The notes beneath the pieces are model-generated. The model did no database searches and was not told the DNA's origin. It was given only the letters and a program-made list of their open reading frames with translations. A stretch of 64,000 bases of DNA from an uncultured Bacilli bacterium (GTDB lineage: Bacteria; Bacillota_I; Bacilli_A; RF39; UBA660): contig CAKOOV010000001.1 of assembly GCA_934098435.1 (NCBI GenBank), positions 118,185-182,184 on the forward strand. The letters run 5' to 3'. Below are positions 6,404-18,634 of the stretch, piece after piece (the first letter of the stretch is position 1; each line of letters starts with the position of its first letter). Position numbers and translations under genes: made by a program.

Positions 6404-6434
6404 TTGTCAACAATATCAACAGGTATGTTGATAA
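6404..6434. promoter_or_regulatory. oriC part 1: DnaA-box cluster upstream of dnaA
   Basis: TTGTCAACA (6404-6412), ATATCAACA (6413-6421) and TGTTGATAA, which is the reverse complement of TTATCAACA (6426-6434). Weaker TGTTAATAA-type repeats continue to about 6560. Confidence 0.65.
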
Positions 6435-6570
6435 CTATTGTGTAAACTGTTAATAATAAAAAATGTCTAAATTTGTTGAAAAGTGTTTAAAAACCTTTAT
6501 TTATATGTTATTATATTGTTGAAAAACTGTTAATAACATGTTATTTTATCTGTTAATTATAAATTTATAC

Positions 6571-6634: not shown

Positions 6635-8002
6635 ATGAATACAGATATTCTTTGGAACAATTTTCTTGATAAAATAAAAGATCGTATATCTCCTTTATCT
6701 TATGATACCTGGTTTAAAGATACTAAATTATATAAAATAGATAATAGTACCGCTATTATCGAAGTACCAATGATTTTACATAAAAAACATTTAGAAGAAA
6801 ATTATTTGGATGAAATTGAAGAAATATTTAATTCTATTACTGGTACAAATTTTAATTTTAAATTTAAATTAGAAAATGAATTATTAGAAGAAGAAAAAAA
6901 TAATAAAAATGAAATAACAACAATTGTTGAAACTACTGGTGTTCCTTATCATAGTAATATTAGTGCTAATTTAAAATCAGAATATACTTTCGATAGTTTT
7001 ATTGTTGGAGATTCTAATAGGTTTGCTTTTACTGCAGCAAGGGCTGTAGCTGAAAAACCTGGTAAAGCTTACAATCCTTTATTTTTATATGGAAAAAGTG
7101 GATTAGGTAAAACCCATTTAATGCATGCGATTGGTAATTATATTTTAGAAAATTCTAATAAAAAGGTGTTATATGTATCTAGTGAACAATTTGTTAATGA
7201 TTATATATATGCAGTTAGAAATAACGATAAAAATAATTTTGATAAAATTGATTCTTTTAAGGATAAGTATAGAAATATAGATGTTTTGATTATTGACGAT
7301 ATACAATTTTTAGGTTCCGCCACTAAGGGACAAGAAGAATTTTTTCATACTTTTAATCAATTACACGATTCAAACAAACAGATTATTATTGCTTCTGATA
7401 GATCTGTAGATGATTTAAAAATGTTAGAAGATAGGTTAATCACTAGATTTAATTGGGGACTTACTGCTAATATTACACCACCGGACTTTGATTTAAGGGT
7501 TAATATTATTAGAAAAAAAATATCGCATCAAGAAGCTGCAAGTGATATTCCTAATGAAGTTATTGAATACATTGCTAATATTAATGACTCAGACGTAAGG
7601 CAACTTGAAGGAGCTATTACTAGAGTATTTGCCTATGCTTCTATGATGAATCGCGGTATTATTACTTTAGATATTGCTATTGATGCCCTGAAAGATAAAG
7701 CTTCTGAAAAAAGTGTATATAAAAACGATGTACATAGAATTCAAAGAATTGTTTGTGAGTATTTTAAAATTGATATTGAAGAACTGAAAGGTAAAAAAAG
7801 AAGTAAAGATATTAATTATCCACGACAAATTGCTATTTATTTATGTAGAATTATGACTAATGAGTCATTTCCTAAAATGGGGACATACTTTGGAGGTAGA
7901 GATCACTCAACAATTATATCTGCTTATCAAAGAATTGAGCGTGATTTAAAGACAAATACACAACTTCAAACGGTAATAAATGAATTGAAAAATAAAATAT
8001 AG
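6635..8002 (+). CDS. dnaA: Chromosomal replication initiator DnaA
   Basis: AAA+ Walker A GKSGLGKTHL, Walker B LIIDDIQF, and C-terminal DNA-binding GGRDHSTIISAYQRI. GGAGG RBS. Confidence 0.97.
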   Translation: MNTDILWNNFLDKIKDRISPLSYDTWFKDTKLYKIDNSTAIIEVPMILHKKHLEENYLDEIEEIFNSITGTNFNFKFKLENELLEEEKNNKNEITTIVETTGVPYHSNISANLKSEYTFDSFIVGDSNRFAFTAARAVAEKPGKAYNPLFLYGKSGLGKTHLMHAIGNYILENSNKKVLYVSSEQFVNDYIYAVRNNDKNNFDKIDSFKDKYRNIDVLIIDDIQFLGSATKGQEEFFHTFNQLHDSNKQIIIASDRSVDDLKMLEDRLITRFNWGLTANITPPDFDLRVNIIRKKISHQEAASDIPNEVIEYIANINDSDVRQLEGAITRVFAYASMMNRGIITLDIAIDALKDKASEKSVYKNDVHRIQRIVCEYFKIDIEELKGKKRSKDINYPRQIAIYLCRIMTNESFPKMGTYFGGRDHSTIISAYQRIERDLKTNTQLQTVINELKNKI

Positions 8003-9376: not shown

Positions 9377-9835
9377 ATGGAGGGGTATATTTTAAATAGT
9401 GATGTTTTATGTTTTACACAAGATATAGACAATGAAAAGAAAGTTTTAATTGTTGAAAAGAATAAAAAATTTAATATTGATGCTGATTGCTTTAAATTTA
9501 TCAAAAAATGCTGTATGGTATATGGTCATTCTTATGCTATGCAAAGGCAATTTGTTATTGATGTTTTCAATTATTATATTAAAACACCTATTATTGTTTC
9601 TGATTATAATATGATTATTTTCTTTCCAACAGCTGCTCCTAATTCTAAGGATTGTATATGGATTTCTTATAATAATATTGATAGATATGTTCAGGAAAAT
9701 AATTATACTAAAATATTTTTCAAAGGTGGAAAAGTTATTAAAATTAATACTTCTTTTAGTACTATTGATAGTCAAATTACTAAGTGTATTAAAATAGAAA
9801 AATATTTAACAACTAAAAGGTATGTAAACTGTTGA
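9377..9835 (+). CDS. ComK-family protein (short, 152 aa)
   Basis: It aligns by eye with the B. subtilis ComK core: C..YGHSY, K.PIIV, IIFFPT, and a Cys followed by WIS (CIWISY here), plus an FKGG..I.I..SF....Q tail. GGGGG RBS. Confidence 0.6.
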   Translation: MEGYILNSDVLCFTQDIDNEKKVLIVEKNKKFNIDADCFKFIKKCCMVYGHSYAMQRQFVIDVFNYYIKTPIIVSDYNMIIFFPTAAPNSKDCIWISYNNIDRYVQENNYTKIFFKGGKVIKINTSFSTIDSQITKCIKIEKYLTTKRYVNC

Positions 9836-9971: not shown

Positions 9972-13017
<3,046 letters not shown>

Positions 13018-13024
13018 GAGGTTT

Positions 13025-15538
13025 ATGATGGAAGATAAGAATATAGATAAAAATTTAAATATAGAAGATATGGGAGAAGATAATAATCATGAGAGAGATA
13101 GAAAAGTAGCTGTTAATATTGTTGGTGAAATGAGGAAGTCTTTTCTTGATTATTCGATGAGTGTTATTGTTGCTAGAGCTCTTCCTGATGTTAGAGATGG
13201 TCTTAAGCCTGTTCATAGAAGAATTTTATATACTTTATATGAAGAGGGTATGACTCCTGATAAGAAATATCAGAAATCTGCTAATGCTGTTGGTGCTGTT
13301 ATGGGTCATTATCATCCACATGGTGATTCTGCTATTTATGAATCTATGGTAAGAATGGCACAAGATTTTACTTATCGACATACTCTTGTTGATGGACATG
13401 GTAATTTTGGCTCTATTGATGGTGATGGTGCTGCTGCTAGTCGTTATACTGAAGCTAGACTTGCTAAGATATCGATGGAACTTTTAAGAGATTTAAATAA
13501 GGATACTGTTGATTTTTCAGAAAATTATGATGGTCAGAGAAAGGAACCTGTTGTTTTGCCTAGTAGATTTCCTAATATATTAGTTAATGGTAATATGGGT
13601 ATTGCTGTTGGTATGGCTACTAATATTCCACCACATAACTTGGGTGAAGTTATTGATGGATGTGTTGCTTATATTGATAATCCAGATATTACTGTTACTG
13701 AACTTATGCAATATATTAAGGGACCTGATTTTCCTACTGCTGGTGTTATTCTTGGTAATAGTGGTATTAAAAGGGCGTACGAGAGCGGTAGAGGAGCTAT
13801 TACTATTAGAGGTATGGCTACTGTTGAAGAAGCTCATAATAAGCACAGAATCGTTATTACAGAGCTTCCATATCAAGTTAATAAGAAGGCTTTGATTCAA
13901 AGAATTGGTGAACTTGTTAGAGATAAGGTTATTGATGGTATTTCTAATTTAAGTGATGAATCGGCTTTAGAGGGTATTAAGATTGTTATTGATGTTAAGA
14001 AAGAGGCTAATGCTAATGTTGTTTTAAATAATTTATATAAGCATACACAGCTTCAAACTTCTTATGGTATTAATTTTTTAATGCTTGTTGATGGTAGTCC
14101 TAGAACTCTTGGTTTAAGAGAGATTATTGAGAAGTATATTGATCATCAGAAACATGTTATTTATCGTAGATGTCAATTTGATTTAAAGAGATATAAAGAT
14201 AGATTACATATATTAGATGGTTTAAAGATTGCTCTTGATAATATTGATAGAGTTATTAAGATTATTAGAGAGTCTGCTGATGACGATGAGGCTAAAGCTG
14301 GACTTATGTCTAATTTTGCTTTATCAGAGGTTCAATCTCAGGCTATTCTTGATATGAGATTAAAGAGACTTACTGGACTTGAAAAATCTAAGATTGAAGA
14401 AGAGATTGCTGAACTTGAAAAATTAGTTAAGGAATTAGAAGAAATATTAGCTAGTGAAGAGAAGATTCTTGATGTTATTAAGACTGAAATGCTTGAAATT
14501 AAAGATAAATATGCTGATGAGAGAAGAACACATATTGATATGACTGCTATTGATTATATTGAAGATGAATCTTTAATTCCTGTTGAGAATGTTGTTATTA
14601 CTTTAACTAATAAGGGGTATATTAAGAGATTACCTGCTGATACTTATAAAACTCAAAATAGAGGTGGTATGGGTGTTAAAGGTATGGCTACTAATGAAGA
14701 GGATTTTGTAGAGCATTTGATTAATGCTACTAGTCATGATTATATTCTTATGTTTACTAATAAGGGAAAGGTATATAGAATTAAGGGTTATGAGATTCCT
14801 GAATATAGTAGACAATCTAAGGGATTACCTATTATTAATTTATTATCTTTAGATAAAGATGAAAAGGTTACTTCTTTATTGAAAATATCTAATGATGATG
14901 AATACAAATGTTTAGTATTTGCTACTAAGAGTGGTTTAATTAAAAGGACTGATATATCTGAATTTGATAGTATTAGGACTAATGGTAAGAAGTTTATTAC
15001 TTTAAAAGATGATGATGAACTTGTATCTGTTAAAAAGACTACTGGTACTGATGAGATATTGATGGCTTCTTCTAATGGTAGAATGGTTAGATTTAATGAG
15101 GATGCTGTTAGAATTATGGGTAGAAGTGCTTCTGGTGTTAGGGGTATTAATCTAGATGATGGAATACTTGTTGGTATGGAGATTGTTGAACCTAATGAGT
15201 ATGTACTTGTTATTACTGAAAATGGTTATGGTAAGAAGACTCCTGTTGATGAATATAGAATTACTAATCGTGGTGGAAAAGGTGTAAAAACGGTTAATAT
15301 TACAGAAAAGAATGGTTCTATTGTGTCATTTAAGACTGTTGATGATAGTAAGGATTTAATGATTATTACTGATTCTGGTATTATTATTAGATTGGCTGTT
15401 GATAAGATATCTACGATGAGTAGAGTTACTCAAGGTGTTAAGCTTATTAATTTAAAAGAAGATAGTATTGTTAGTTCTACTGCTATTGTTGATAAGGAAA
15501 AAAATTATGATAATGATGATGAAAAGGAAAGTGAATAA
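13025..15538 (+). CDS. gyrA: DNA gyrase subunit A
   Basis: [36 protein letters not shown] and the active-site region [12 protein letters not shown]-terminal beta-pinwheel repeats. Confidence 0.97.
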
Positions 15539-15646
15539 TATATTTGCTTTCTTTTATTTTATGTATTTATATAATAATTTAAATACATTTGTTCGTTTGT
15601 TTTAATATATTTTATTTACTTGTTGATAGATAATTATTTATTTTAA

Positions 15647-15675
15647 TTGCATTTCTTTTAATTTTATTGTAAAAT
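15647..15675 (+). promoter_or_regulatory. Promoter of the SRP RNA gene
   Basis: TTGCAT, 17 nt, TG-TAAAAT (extended -10). A G lies about 7 nt downstream at 15682. Confidence 0.55.
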
Positions 15676-15681
15676 GATATT

Positions 15682-15760
15682 GATACAACGTTAATTGATG
15701 GAACCAAGTCAGGGGCGGAAGCCAGCAGCTTTAACATTACATTGGCGTGTGTATCTTTTT
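15682..15760 (+). ncRNA. ffs: Signal recognition particle RNA, short (4.5S-like) hairpin form
   Basis: Conserved domain IV core GTCAGGGGC-GGAA-GCCAGCAGC (compare E. coli GUCAGGUCC-GGAA-GGAAGCAGC). The 5' GATACA.ACGTTAAT pairs with the 3' ATTGGCGT.TGTATC. A T10 run follows directly. The position upstream of tadA/dnaX matches B. subtilis scr. Confidence 0.8.
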
Positions 15761-15826
15761 TTTTTATATTCTATATGTGATTCACTTTTCTTTATTGATT
15801 ATTAAAATTAGAATATTTTTAAATCA

Positions 15827-15842
15827 TGTTTCATGTGAAACA
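15827..15842. other. Degenerate parS-like site (TGTTTCATGTGAAACA), inside a longer 13-bp-arm inverted repeat
   Basis: One mismatch to TGTTTCACGTGAAACA. Arms AAATCATGTTTCA / TGAAACATGATTT span 15821-15848. No adjacent DnaA box. Confidence 0.4.
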
Positions 15843-15932
15843 TGATTTTTTATTACTTTATTATAATATAATCATATGTATTTATATTTATTAATATTAT
15901 TTTTTGTTTTTATTTGTAAGATTACTATTTAA

Positions 15933-15960
15933 TGTTTCACGTGGAACGTAGCTGTTAATA
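15933..15960. other. Decayed parS + DnaA-box module
   Basis: TGTTTCACGTGGAACG has one mismatch to the degenerate consensus TGTTTCACGTGNAACA. It is followed by TA-GCTGTTAATA, where the other copies have AG-TTATCAACA. Confidence 0.5.
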
Positions 15961-16071
15961 GTTTTATTATTATTAATTAATTAATTTTGTATTTATAAAA
16001 TATATGACTATGATATTTAATTGTAGTTTAGTGAAAAAATTATTAACATTCTTAATAATAATTTTTTATTA

Positions 16072-16099
16072 TGTTTCACGTGAAACATAGTTATCAACA
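16072..16099. other. parS (perfect 16-mer) + 3 bp (TAG; 2 bp after the 18-mer palindrome) + DnaA box TTATCAACA
   Basis: TGTTTCACGTGAAACA at 16072-16087 (the 18-bp palindrome ATGTTTCACGTGAAACAT spans 16071-16088), then AG, then TTATCAACA at 16091-16099. Confidence 0.85.
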
Positions 16100-16282
16100 A
16101 TTTTTTGTTTATTATTATTTTTATATCATAAATATTAATATGTTTTATTAGATTTTAAATAATAAAATTTTATATTTATTTTTTTACAAAATTTAAAAAT
16201 TATTCTTATTTAATATTTTTTTTAATAAGAATAATAATGTTTAATATTATTTTTTGCTTTTATTTGTTAGATTACTATTTAA

Positions 16283-16310
16283 TGTTTCACGTGAAACATA
16301 GTTATCAACA
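16283..16310. other. parS (perfect 16-mer) + DnaA box TTATCAACA
   Basis: TGTTTCACGTGAAACA at 16283-16298, then T-AG, then TTATCAACA at 16302-16310. Confidence 0.85.
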
Positions 16311-16363
16311 GTTTCTTGTTTATTATTATTTTTATATTATAAATATTAATATATTTTTTATTA

Positions 16364-16391
16364 TGTTTCACGTGAAACATAGTTATCCACA
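16364..16391. other. parS (perfect 16-mer) + consensus DnaA box TTATCCACA
   Basis: TGTTTCACGTGAAACA at 16364-16379, then T-AG, then TTATCCACA at 16383-16391. This is the only perfect canonical DnaA box I found in the window. Confidence 0.85.
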
Positions 16392-16488
16392 AAATTATTA
16401 ATATATTTTAAAGATTTGTATTGATTAAATGTATATTTATATGTTAATATTGTTATTAATTTGAATCAAATTAGTGATGGTGATATTG

Positions 16489-16914
16489 ATGAATGAAAGT
16501 TTTATGATAATTGCTATAGAAGAGGCAAGAATTGCTTACAAAAATGATGAAATACCTGTTGGATGTGCTATCTTTTATAATGGTAAGTTGGTTTCAAAAG
16601 CTCATAATTGTCGTGAGAAGACAAATAATAGCATTATGCATGCTGAAATTGTTGCTATTAGTGATGCTTGTGAAAAACTTTGTAGTTGGAGACTTAATAA
16701 TTGTGTTTTATATGTCACTTTGGAGCCTTGTATGATGTGTATGGGTGCTATTATTGAAAGTCGTATAAAAAAAGTTTATTTTGGAACTAAAAATAATAGC
16801 GAACAAATGTATGATGCAAATGCTATTAAGAAAGCAGTGAATGCTGAATTTGTTGATAACAAAGAATGTTCTAAATTATTATCTGATTTTTTTAAAAATA
16901 AGAGAAAAAAATAA
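16489..16914 (+). CDS. tadA: tRNA adenosine(34) deaminase TadA
   Basis: CDA zinc motifs HAE(IVAI) and PCMMCMGA. About 141 aa. The ATG at 16489 follows GGTGA. Confidence 0.85.
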   Translation: MNESFMIIAIEEARIAYKNDEIPVGCAIFYNGKLVSKAHNCREKTNNSIMHAEIVAISDACEKLCSWRLNNCVLYVTLEPCMMCMGAIIESRIKKVYFGTKNNSEQMYDANAIKKAVNAEFVDNKECSKLLSDFFKNKRKK

Positions 16915-16969: not shown

Positions 16970-18634
16970 ATGAGTTATTTGGCTTTATATCGTAAATATA
17001 GACCTATCGATTTTGATGATGTATATGGTCAAGAAGAAGTTGTAACTGTTATAAAAAATGCTATTGCTAATGGTAAAGTATCTCATGCCTATCTTTTTAG
17101 TGGTCCTAGAGGAACTGGTAAAACTACTGTAGCTAAAATAATTGCTAGACTTGTTAATTGTGAACATTTAGTTGATTCTAAGCCTTGTGGTAAATGTTAT
17201 AATTGTTTAAATTTTAACAATAGTAATGATATTGTTGAAATAGATGCAGCTTCAAATAATGGTGTTGATGAAATTAGAGAACTTAGGGATAAAATTAATT
17301 TGGTTCCTAGTAGTGCTAAATATAAAGTTTATATTATTGATGAGGTTCATATGCTTACTAATCAGGCTTTTAATGCTTTATTGAAAACTTTAGAGGAGCC
17401 TCCTAGTCACGTTATTTTTATTTTGGCGACTACAGAACCTTCTAAAATTCCACTTACTATTTCATCAAGGTGTCAAAAATTTAGATTTTCTAAGATTAGT
17501 GATAATAAAATTGTTGATAGATTAAAAGATATAGTAAAATTGGAAGATATTAATATTGATAATGATGCTTTATTTGAAATAGCAAGGCTTTCCGATGGTG
17601 GTATGAGGGATTCTATTAATATGTTAGATCAACTTATTTCTTATAGTAATTCTAAAATTACTTTAAATGACGTTTATGATGTTAATGGTTCTGTTTCCTA
17701 TGATGAATTATTTACTTTAATTAATGATATATATAATAATGATAAAGTTGATATTATTGATTTTGTTGATAATTTGGATAACGAAGGGAAAGAAATTATT
17801 AAATTCCTTCAAGAATTATTGATTTTTTTAAAAGACGTTATTTTATATAAAAATGCAAAGATATTATCTAATGTTGAAATAAAAAATGATTATATTATTA
17901 AAGTTTCAAAATTATATAGTGATAATTTGTTGTATGACTTGATTGAAAATTTAAATGATATTCAAACTACAATAAAATCTTCTACGCATGGTAGTATTGT
18001 ATTTATGACTTTTATTCTTAAATTTTCAGATGCAATATACAAAAAGAGTGATAATAATAATATAAAAATTGATGGAACTGTAGAAAAAAATGAAAACAAT
18101 GCTGTAGAAAATAATAAAAATGAGAAAAATATTTCCCGGGAAATAAAAAAAGTGGATAATATTCAAAAAATGTCTGATGATGAAATAAATGTGAGGGTAA
18201 ATAATGCACTTGCTACAGCTTCAAAGGATGTTTTAAATAAAGTTAAAAATAATTGGTCTTTGATAGATGATTATTTAACTGATGAAAAATTTTCGGTTGT
18301 TTCTGGATTGTTAAAAGACTTTGTGCCTGTTGTTGCTTCTGAGAAATATATTATTGTTGCTATCGATTTAAATTCAATGGTTGATAGAGTTAATGATGAT
18401 ATTATTGAGGTTGAAACATTTTTTAGGAAATTATTTGATTTTAATATTTCTGCTGTTGCTATTACTAATGTTCGTTGGCAAGCCGAAAAAAATAAATATG
18501 TTAGTAATATTAAAAAAGGTATTAAGTATTCTGTTAAAGAAATGCATAAAAGTAATGTTGATGAGATAAAAAATAATAATCCTGTTGATGAATTGATTGA
18601 TTTATTAGGGGATAGTGTAATAGAATATAAATAG
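16970..18634 (+). CDS. dnaX: DNA polymerase III subunit gamma/tau
   Basis: MSYLALYRKYRP, GPRGTGKTT, IIDEVHML, LKTLEEPP and SRCQKF. Confidence 0.93.
   Translation: MSYLALYRKYRPIDFDDVYGQEEVVTVIKNAIANGKVSHAYLFSGPRGTGKTTVAKIIARLVNCEHLVDSKPCGKCYNCLNFNNSNDIVEIDAASNNGVDEIRELRDKINLVPSSAKYKVYIIDEVHMLTNQAFNALLKTLEEPPSHVIFILATTEPSKIPLTISSRCQKFRFSKISDNKIVDRLKDIVKLEDINIDNDALFEIARLSDGGMRDSINMLDQLISYSNSKITLNDVYDVNGSVSYDELFTLINDIYNNDKVDIIDFVDNLDNEGKEIIKFLQELLIFLKDVILYKNAKILSNVEIKNDYIIKVSKLYSDNLLYDLIENLNDIQTTIKSSTHGSIVFMTFILKFSDAIYKKSDNNNIKIDGTVEKNENNAVENNKNEKNISREIKKVDNIQKMSDDEINVRVNNALATASKDVLNKVKNNWSLIDDYLTDEKFSVVSGLLKDFVPVVASEKYIIVAIDLNSMVDRVNDDIIEVETFFRKLFDFNISAVAITNVRWQAEKNKYVSNIKKGIKYSVKEMHKSNVDEIKNNNPVDELIDLLGDSVIEYK

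Follow-up and report, generated by a model that had tools for sequence, protein, structure and literature searches.

The 64,000-nt stretch of DNA analyzed here (hereafter the window; contig CAKOOV010000001.1, from an uncultured Bacilli bacterium) has a GC content of about 25% and carries, between gyrA and tadA, an array of sites of the parS type, the target of the partition protein ParB (Spo0J), some of which are adjoined by boxes for the replication initiator DnaA. The window includes, in this order, fpg, a small open reading frame (ORF), a nucleotidyltransferase gene and an LtaS-like gene (both on the minus strand), a gene for a HerA-like ATPase, dnaA (6635–8002), dnaN, a ComK-like gene, recF, gyrB and gyrA (13025–15538), followed by ffs, the array, tadA (called start at 16489), dnaX, ybaB, recR, holB, ricT and onwards. 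The 950-bp spacer comprised between gyrA and tadA (15539–16488) is very AT-rich, with AT-rich runs throughout, and non-coding, and it holds ffs as well as the parS array. The longest ORF within it has 54 amino acids, which agrees with a first-pass annotation of this DNA that had reported none of 60 amino acids or more between ffs and tadA.

The array consists of five parS modules (Table 1). Three of them are perfect copies of the 18-bp palindrome ATGTTTCACGTGAAACAT, the inner 16-mer of which matches the parS consensus TGTTNCACGTGAAACA at every position. The other two are degenerate copies of ATGTTTCACGTGAAACAT, located at 15826–15843 (one mismatch) and 15932–15949 (two mismatches); within the 16-bp core, each of them is one mismatch away from the palindromic sequence TGTTNCACGTGNAACA. 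These five matches compare with 0.01–0.03 expected by chance, and no other site with up to two mismatches to TGTTNCACGTGAAACA exists elsewhere in the 64-kb window. The modules are embedded in a mosaic of longer direct repeats: 16071–16146 is 95% identical to 16282–16357, 15884–15999 is 78% identical to 16234–16349, and 16061–16100 is 98% identical to 16353–16392, the homology between this last pair (modules 3 and 5) stopping directly after the DnaA box. Our pattern search thus recovered the three perfect and two decayed palindromes, the parS identity of their core and the repeat mosaic as the first-pass annotation had described them. Explanations of the array as a structured RNA or as a simple tandem repeat were dropped, as Rfam, run on the spacer even at a permissive threshold, returned ffs and nothing else, and Tandem Repeats Finder returned for the array a 79-nt two-copy unit only.

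Every perfect parS 18-mer is followed by AG and then by a 9-mer corresponding to a DnaA box (TTATCAACA, TTATCAACA and TTATCCACA, in this order), again as had been claimed. When compared to the box pattern TTATNCACA, the third box is perfect and the first two have a single mismatch, at position 6. The cluster of six boxes found within 110 bp upstream of dnaA provides a reference for the local box type, which we expressed as the relaxed pattern TT[AT]TN[AC]ACA. As it is also present in this cluster, TTATCAACA represents a box type that the organism uses beside dnaA. In addition, the 13-mer ATAGTTATCAACA is common to the dnaA upstream region and to the composite of parS and box. Upon scanning the window with the relaxed pattern, the densest cluster is that upstream of dnaA and the second densest is the array, where four local-type boxes, all of them on the plus strand, lie within 352 bp. 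The dnaA–dnaN spacer of the window includes no DnaA box. Considering that the variants next to parS occur both in the cluster upstream of the organism's own dnaA and in the dnaA–dnaN spacers of relatives, the 9-mers can be accepted as credible DnaA boxes, as first proposed.

Table 1. Coordinates of the parS array, the DnaA boxes and other features of the window.
Feature	Position	Strand	Remarks
Whole array, five parS modules	15821..16391		In the 950-bp non-coding gyrA/ffs-tadA spacer; orthologous arrays in 72/81 relatives
parS-1, degenerate TGTTTCATGTGAAACA at 15827-15842	15821..15848		Inside a 28-nt palindrome followed by a T-run; terminator-like
parS-2, degenerate TGTTTCACGTGGAACG	15933..15948		Its TAG + box flank has decayed to TAGCTGTTAATAG
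parS-3, perfect 18-bp palindrome	16071..16088		Exact match
parS-4, perfect	16282..16299		Exact match
parS-5, perfect	16363..16380		Exact match
DnaA box TTATCAACA	16091..16099	+	2 bp past the 18-mer (3 bp past the 16-mer)
DnaA box TTATCAACA	16302..16310	+	Adjoins parS-4
DnaA box TTATCCACA (consensus)	16383..16391	+	tadA start called at 16489, about 98 bp downstream
Weak DnaA-box-like 9-mer TTATTAACA	16040..16048	+	Variant also present twice upstream of dnaA
Reference cluster of six boxes: TTATCAACA, TTATTAACA (x2), TTTTCAACA (x2), TTTTAAACA	6426..6536	-	Upstream of dnaA; defines the local box type
ffs (small signal recognition particle RNA)	15672..15770	+	Rfam RF00169, 58.3 bits; left neighbor of the array
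Perfect Noc-binding site TATTTCCCGGGAAATA	18130..18145		Inside dnaX, in the variable linker; flanks the array
One-mismatch Noc-binding site TATTTCCCAGGAAATA	11060..11075		3' end of recF

A GyrA-based scan, in which one genome per species was retained, yielded 80 loci from uncultured low-GC "Bacilli/Tenericutes" metagenome-assembled genomes (MAGs) from the gut, with GyrA identities to the window ranging from 99% down to 63%. The gene order dnaA-dnaN-comK-recF-gyrB-gyrA-[spacer]-tadA-dnaX-recR-holB-ricT is kept throughout these ~80 related species. Comparison of the gyrA–tadA spacers, window included, shows parS sites (up to one mismatch) at this same position in 72 of 81 spacers; each array comprises 1–18 sites (334 in total) and extends over up to 3 kb. 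With respect to the nine spacers that have no parS, five are on contigs ending in or just after gyrA, two have parS just past tadA, and two are complete and have none. Within the species, four other assemblies have the same 950-bp spacer: three show 0–1 single-nucleotide polymorphisms (SNPs) and one (L289 in our numbering of loci) differs by one indel, its SNPs being uncounted. Over the flanking 10.6 kb, strains of the species differ by 42–72 SNPs (0.4–0.7%).

Two further features of the arrays were recorded. Longer perfect palindromes enclose many parS sites of the lineage, 100 out of 323 having at least four extra symmetric bp (about 3 expected), and the sequences of the arms vary. Besides, many contigs end inside or just before the array, as is usual where repeats are assembled, and the contig of the species representative (L006, CAAEWZ010000037.1) ends in gyrA. 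Arrays of this type appear to break short-read assemblies and hence to be under-represented in MAG-based surveys.

To locate the parB genes of the lineage, a codon-biased scan for the motif GERRxRA was followed by a protein scan. By means of the motif scan, soj-spo0J was found in several MAGs of the group, including one in which it shares a contig with the array (L034/L208), about 31 kb away and on the opposite strand. The protein scan gave 80 lineage ParB loci, among which are three further array-bearing MAGs (L061/L214, L027/L250 and L025/L264). ParB of the lineage has the recognition motif GKSR, the arginine being at the position that reads guanine 1 of parS (residue roles as in PMC7383237). 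In 672 kb of DNA around the lineage parB genes, a single parS-like site was found, with one mismatch; parS is thus missing at parB, where B. subtilis has it, which points to the gyrA–tadA array as the main, perhaps the only, centromere. Taken together, the maintenance of the array in relatives, the presence of soj-spo0J in the lineage and the near-absence of parS in these 672 kb argue for a dedicated centromere of the lineage. The suggestion that the spacer is a dedicated non-coding ParB platform thus gained from the comparison, with arrays in 72 of 81 spacers and both Soj and a ParB of the parS-binding type in the lineage. The assignment of the array as a ParB loading platform can be considered very well supported by the sequences, and very probably the array is the centromere of the chromosome, with an optional link to replication control.

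The role of the DnaA boxes is a separate question. The three boxes of the window are copies of one duplicated unit and therefore count as a single event within it. As the window alone is uninformative on chance, the question of whether boxes are tied to parS was answered from the relatives. We read outward the 686 flanks of 343 parS sites and found boxes (up to one mismatch) 46 times at offsets of 0–10 bp and 8 times at offsets of 11–30 bp. Within the arrays, 43 boxes are within 10 bp of parS, 15.8 being expected under uniform placement, and boxes are depleted at distances of 11–80 bp. When 90 parS sites located near parB in other AT-rich taxa were used as a control, their 180 flanks showed one adjacent box. 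Hence, in the lineage, local-type DnaA boxes are about 10-fold commoner within 10 bp of parS than farther away, and their closeness to parS appears to be selected. The variants that occur beside parS (TTATCAACA, TTTTCCACA, TTATTCACA and TTATCCACA) are the dominant ones of the dnaA–dnaN spacers of the lineage; in a comparison of 15 species, about 8 have beside parS the same variants as in their own dnaA–dnaN spacer. TTATCCAAA and TTATCCATA, which are chance variants seen elsewhere in the window, are absent beside parS.

At least one adjacent box exists in 20 of 75 species. The exact geometry of the window, i.e., the parS 16-mer, three nucleotides (tag, ttg or tat) and TTATNCACA reading outward, is found in eight species (the window, L004, L013, L021, L026, L032, L076 and L082). 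In other arrangements the box is in reverse orientation, either at 1 bp (L004, L038, L041, L082) or at 6–8 bp (L020, L023, L024, L030). No box adjoins parS in L007 or L009, two of the three nearest relatives; in the third, L008, TTATCAACA is found at 6 bp. With adjacency limited to 20 of 75 species, spacing and orientation variable and the nearest relatives different, the first-pass annotation's fixed composite of parS and DnaA box did not hold. Taking into account that the other 55 species have arrays without an adjacent box, the boxes would be dispensable for centromere function; judged from this distribution, they are a recurrent accessory and not an obligatory fused unit.

Sequences from outside our set of loci were also searched. 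The exact 24-mer of the composite gave five matches in 185,579 species genomes, about as many as chance predicts, all in unrelated phyla; two of the five complete a perfect TTATCCACA. Metagenomes were scanned for a perfect parS followed by N{0,20} and TTATCCACA. The matches listed comprise at least 14 further contigs of the lineage, with at least 23 boxes at gaps of 0–8 and at least two at gaps of 9–20; among them the gap is constant within a genome and differs between genomes (0, 1, 2, 4, 7 or 8). The other contigs among the matches listed, at least 70, gave 47 boxes at gaps of 0–8 vs. 26 at gaps of 9–20. When related contexts in these non-lineage contigs were merged by eye, the figures became about 26 vs. 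22, again among the matches listed, and the excess was gone; no generality is therefore claimed beyond the lineage.

Several of the observations weigh against a centromere provided with functional DnaA boxes. TTATCAACA is frequent by chance, as it is the commonest one-mismatch variant in this 25%-GC genome and occurs 17 times in the window; boxes with up to one mismatch are not enriched across the whole window (37 found vs. 29.5 expected); the three boxes of the window descend from one duplicated unit; the 55 arrays without an adjacent box include those of two of the three nearest relatives; and the distance (0–10 bp), side and orientation of the box vary between species, which weakens the claim of a defined composite. 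Moreover, neither ParB nor Soj was found in the 64-kb window, when searched by tblastn with approximate Spo0J and Soj queries, or in the 7.6 kb to its left. Apart from this last point and the general variation in geometry, these are the facts that a plain centromere would explain, the box-like 9-mers being passengers, that is, AT-rich near-consensus words caught in the duplicated unit, with L008 showing yet another spacing. Such a possibility deserves to be taken seriously, even if we consider it improbable: it does not account for the fact that, over the species, boxes are in ten-fold excess up to 10 bp from parS and depleted at 11–80 bp, for the lack of this excess at the control parS sites, for a spectrum of variants that equals that of the oriC spacers and is devoid of TTATCCAAA and TTATCCATA, or for a geometry shared by eight species even though their linker trinucleotides and box variants differ.

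Alternatively, the boxes might be operators by which DnaA controls the tadA-dnaX-ybaB-recR operon (or ffs), the parS sites being mere neighbors. The distance from the consensus box to tadA, downstream of it, is about 98 bp, the modules are overlapped by promoter-like hexamers, and DnaA is known to act as a transcription factor at the DnaA-box clusters of B. subtilis (PMC3245932). Nevertheless, boxes are repeated as far as 400 bp upstream of tadA, in relatives they occur on either side of parS and anywhere in arrays of up to 3 kb, box position follows parS and not the tadA start, and the promoter-like matches are barely above the shuffle expectation in such AT-rich DNA. We consequently rate operator function as very unlikely.

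The position of the array bears on whether it could belong to the origin of replication. Between the end of dnaA and the start of the array there are 7.8 kb, very close to the ~8 kb given in the first-pass annotation, which had called the array origin-proximal. The linkage to dnaA stands, whereas the nucleotide skew gives no sign of an origin at this place. GC skew at third codon positions (GC3 skew), calculated on the plus strand, is positive for nearly every gene irrespective of its own strand (the exception being a 97-aa ORF with 10 informative sites), and its sign does not change between polC, 7.6 kb beyond the left edge of the window, and the window's right edge, a tract that takes in dnaA and the array. 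No switch in GC or GC3 skew was found at the array, at the dnaA flanks or anywhere else between a point 14 kb left of dnaA and that right edge. The majority of the genes left of dnaA also point rightwards, and in one relative parAB is located 24 kb upstream of dnaA, on the other strand. The lack of a switch implies that the long-term replication switch would be more than 14 kb to the left of dnaA, or else that the region was recently rearranged; probably, the array is within a few percent of the chromosome from the origin. An AT-rich non-coding spacer with four same-orientation local-type boxes in 352 bp, at 7.8 kb from dnaA, has the looks of a further oriC module or even of the true origin. 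Against the idea of a third origin module argues that the array is not at a skew switch, since neither across the array nor across dnaA does GC3 skew change its sign; in addition, the majority of the relatives' arrays have no boxes, and canonical box clusters flanking dnaA exist. Little probability is thus left for an origin at the spacer. Finally, a generic dispersed or structural repeat unrelated to ParB (hairpin terminators, an insulator) is suggested by the 28-nt palindrome and T-run of parS-1 and by the longer palindromes with variable arms around other sites of the lineage, but it can hardly be correct, since it is the core that stays invariant among ~80 species, with exactly the ParB consensus, and the arms that change; moreover, the sites keep to a single locus and the lineage encodes ParB.

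The spacers of relatives also include sites for Noc. We identified 75 Noc-binding sites (NBS; the 16-bp sequence TATTTCCCGGGAAATA, as in PMC7383237) in 32 of the 81 spacers, typically 24–49 bp from parS. In some species, NBS and parS form strict tandem units, of 64 bp repeated 8 times (L083), 84 bp repeated 6 times (L084) or 117 bp repeated 6 times (L073), and examples of interleaving are found at L083 3818–4292, L084 8670–9138, L073 8463–9368, L011 8461–9204 and L007 8765–9088. Elsewhere, the 672 kb surrounding the parB genes of the lineage gave no NBS, and control loci amounting to 885 kb gave one. The window's own spacer (15539–16488) has no NBS; the nearest ones are in dnaX and recF (Table 1). 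The NBS inside dnaX recurs in at least 14 relatives, with up to three copies in L021, and three further matches are located just past the dnaX match. It is read in different frames, mostly as ISREI and less often as YFPGN or FPGK, which suggests that it is the DNA, and not the protein, that is under selection. The genes rsmG-noc-soj-spo0J occur together in at least one MAG, whose Noc-like protein has Q, K and R in three of the four positions that set specificity. DnaA boxes adjoin NBS as well (eight within 7 bp, in 132 flanks). In S. aureus, Noc has been reported to hold back the initiation that depends on DnaA (PMC5540599). The locus thus has the appearance of a hub for clamps of the ParB family and DnaA. 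A separate observation concerns a repeat unit in L007 (8466–9600) that brings together all three types of site: NBS (one full copy and two half-NBS-like sequences), a TTATCAACA box and, farther along, parS.

On balance, we lean towards reading the gyrA/ffs–tadA spacer as the centromere of the lineage, provided with accessory DnaA boxes that would act by proximity. ParB (Spo0J) would load on the non-coding parS array and nucleate the partition complex there; as three of the five modules have a DnaA box, DnaA and ParB would be placed within a few bp of each other. We infer both binding events, and any effect on initiation or segregation, from the sites themselves. The consequences may take two forms. 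In the first one, the boxes would be occluded upon loading or spreading of ParB, and the array would be a small DnaA sink gated by ParB, analogous to the DnaA-box clusters of B. subtilis. In the second one, DnaA bound beside parS would be a roadblock that shapes the spreading of ParB clamps. The sequences also tolerate a simple co-localization of DnaA at the place where ParB converts Soj. A stereospecific ParB–DnaA complex would need a fixed spacing and what is kept is proximity only, so that a mechanism based on proximity (occlusion, roadblock or titration) is favored. A bolder version, which we find decidedly doubtful, is that the centromere doubles as a DnaA platform gated by ParB and, in relatives, by Noc, the box being bound only when no clamp is present or DnaA blocking the escape of the clamp to one side. 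Were it true, the amount of free DnaA, or the direction in which ParB/SMC are loaded, would depend directly on whether the partition complex is assembled, and initiation, segregation and nucleoid occlusion would be coupled in cis at one locus.

Some observations on the surroundings of the array and on its relatives are recorded apart. The ComK-family gene at 9377–9835 (Pfam PF06338, E = 2e-24), between dnaN and recF, takes the slot where many Firmicutes have the S4-like yaaA, and tblastn gives a match at the same position in most relatives. Upstream of dnaA there is no rpmH–rnpA (in the window plus 7.6 kb to its left), and the HerA-like ATPase gene is found there instead; polC, a TraG-like gene, fic, polA and fpg are also upstream of dnaA, on its same strand. 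To the left of the window (L086 17764–20839), polC and polA enclose a gene for a TraG/type IV secretion system coupling protein, a gene for an AraC-type regulator and a Fic gene, which may be left over from a mobile element close to the dnaA region. L012 and L008 are equally close to the window in dnaA (89%), dnaN and recR, with an identity in gyrB and gyrA of only 69% for L012 and of 91% and 87%, respectively, for L008, which hints that gyrBA was replaced or recombined in one lineage. The NCBI labels of the relatives are unreliable; "Candidatus Scybalousia", for instance, is filed under Bacteroidales. Relatives labelled Mycoplasma sp. CAG:956/877 and Clostridium sp. CAG:1193 are presumably members of RF39-like orders.

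Coupling between initiation and segregation is known mainly from proteins that act in trans (Soj and DnaA) and from one genetic case, the DnaA site in the Caulobacter centromere. The locus described here is a compact non-coding centromere from a large clade of gut Bacilli that is uncultured and unstudied. Its ~80 species constitute a natural series in which parS is combined with DnaA boxes, Noc sites, both or neither, at varied spacings; this ready comparative experiment addresses whether, and how, the initiator and clamps of the ParB family interact on DNA. The locus also yields short fragments suited to in vitro tests or to transplantation into B. subtilis.

With the ParABS systems of model Firmicutes (Spo0J–parS of B. 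subtilis; S. pneumoniae), the array shares the identical 16-bp consensus, the linkage to the dnaA region and the presence of Soj and Spo0J in the lineage. Eight parS sites are proximal to oriC in B. subtilis (PMC3245932). The parS sites of the models are few, dispersed and mostly intragenic, whereas in the present lineage 1–18 sites are gathered in one non-coding spacer and none is at parB. Sites grouped near the origin that form one nucleation zone are known from Streptomyces, Pseudomonas (parS1-4) and Caulobacter (PMC7022226), but those clusters span kilobases and are usually near parAB; the array is tight and tandem-like, and in one relative it is about 31 kb from parAB. Noc and its sites are likewise known from Bacilli, and the lineage has them in the form of perfect 16-bp NBS interleaved with parS in relatives and of one NBS in dnaX of the window; the NBS of B. 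subtilis are dispersed over the chromosome (PMC4331003), whereas those of the lineage are concentrated at the centromere locus.

As to the initiator, the closest precedent is that of Caulobacter. According to accounts of Mera et al. (2014; via PMC4468827, PMC6399470), the partitioning that DnaA triggers depends on a DnaA site within the centromere. A DnaA box within a centromere, and an initiator acting at parS as well as at the origin, would be common to both cases. Caulobacter belongs to another phylum, its ParABS system is indispensable (PMC7022226) and, following the same accounts, its DnaA site has been shown genetically to matter; the boxes of the present lineage, putative sites of DnaA action, are repeated and are located 0–10 bp from parS in about one quarter of the species. 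The DnaA-box clusters of B. subtilis and datA of E. coli are, like the array, groups of DnaA boxes outside oriC and near dnaA. When such clusters are deleted in B. subtilis together with spo0J, a synergistic over-initiation results that depends on Soj (PMC3245932). These known clusters are not interleaved with parS, whereas each putative box of the array is tied to a ParB site.

Direct contacts between ParB and DnaA have been reported in Vibrio and Deinococcus (PMC7022226). The repeats cisII/cisMP of Deinococcus, upstream of parAB on secondary replicons, bind both DnaA and ParBs (PMC7671480). In V. cholerae rctA/parS2 and D. radiodurans cisII, as would be the case for the array, one segment binds initiator and ParB at sites that may be adjacent (PMC3688505, PMC6399470, PMC7671480). 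These are plasmid-derived replicons, and the site on Vibrio chromosome II binds RctB; the array is on the primary chromosome and combines canonical parS with DnaA boxes. None of the published parallels describes boxes abutting canonical parS in a repeated array, and our literature search found no description of a gyrA–tadA parS array or of a composite of parS and DnaA box in Firmicutes. The kind of element, a parS centromere with DnaA sites, is therefore already known; what is new is this variant of it, in an unstudied clade and accompanied by a series of site combinations.

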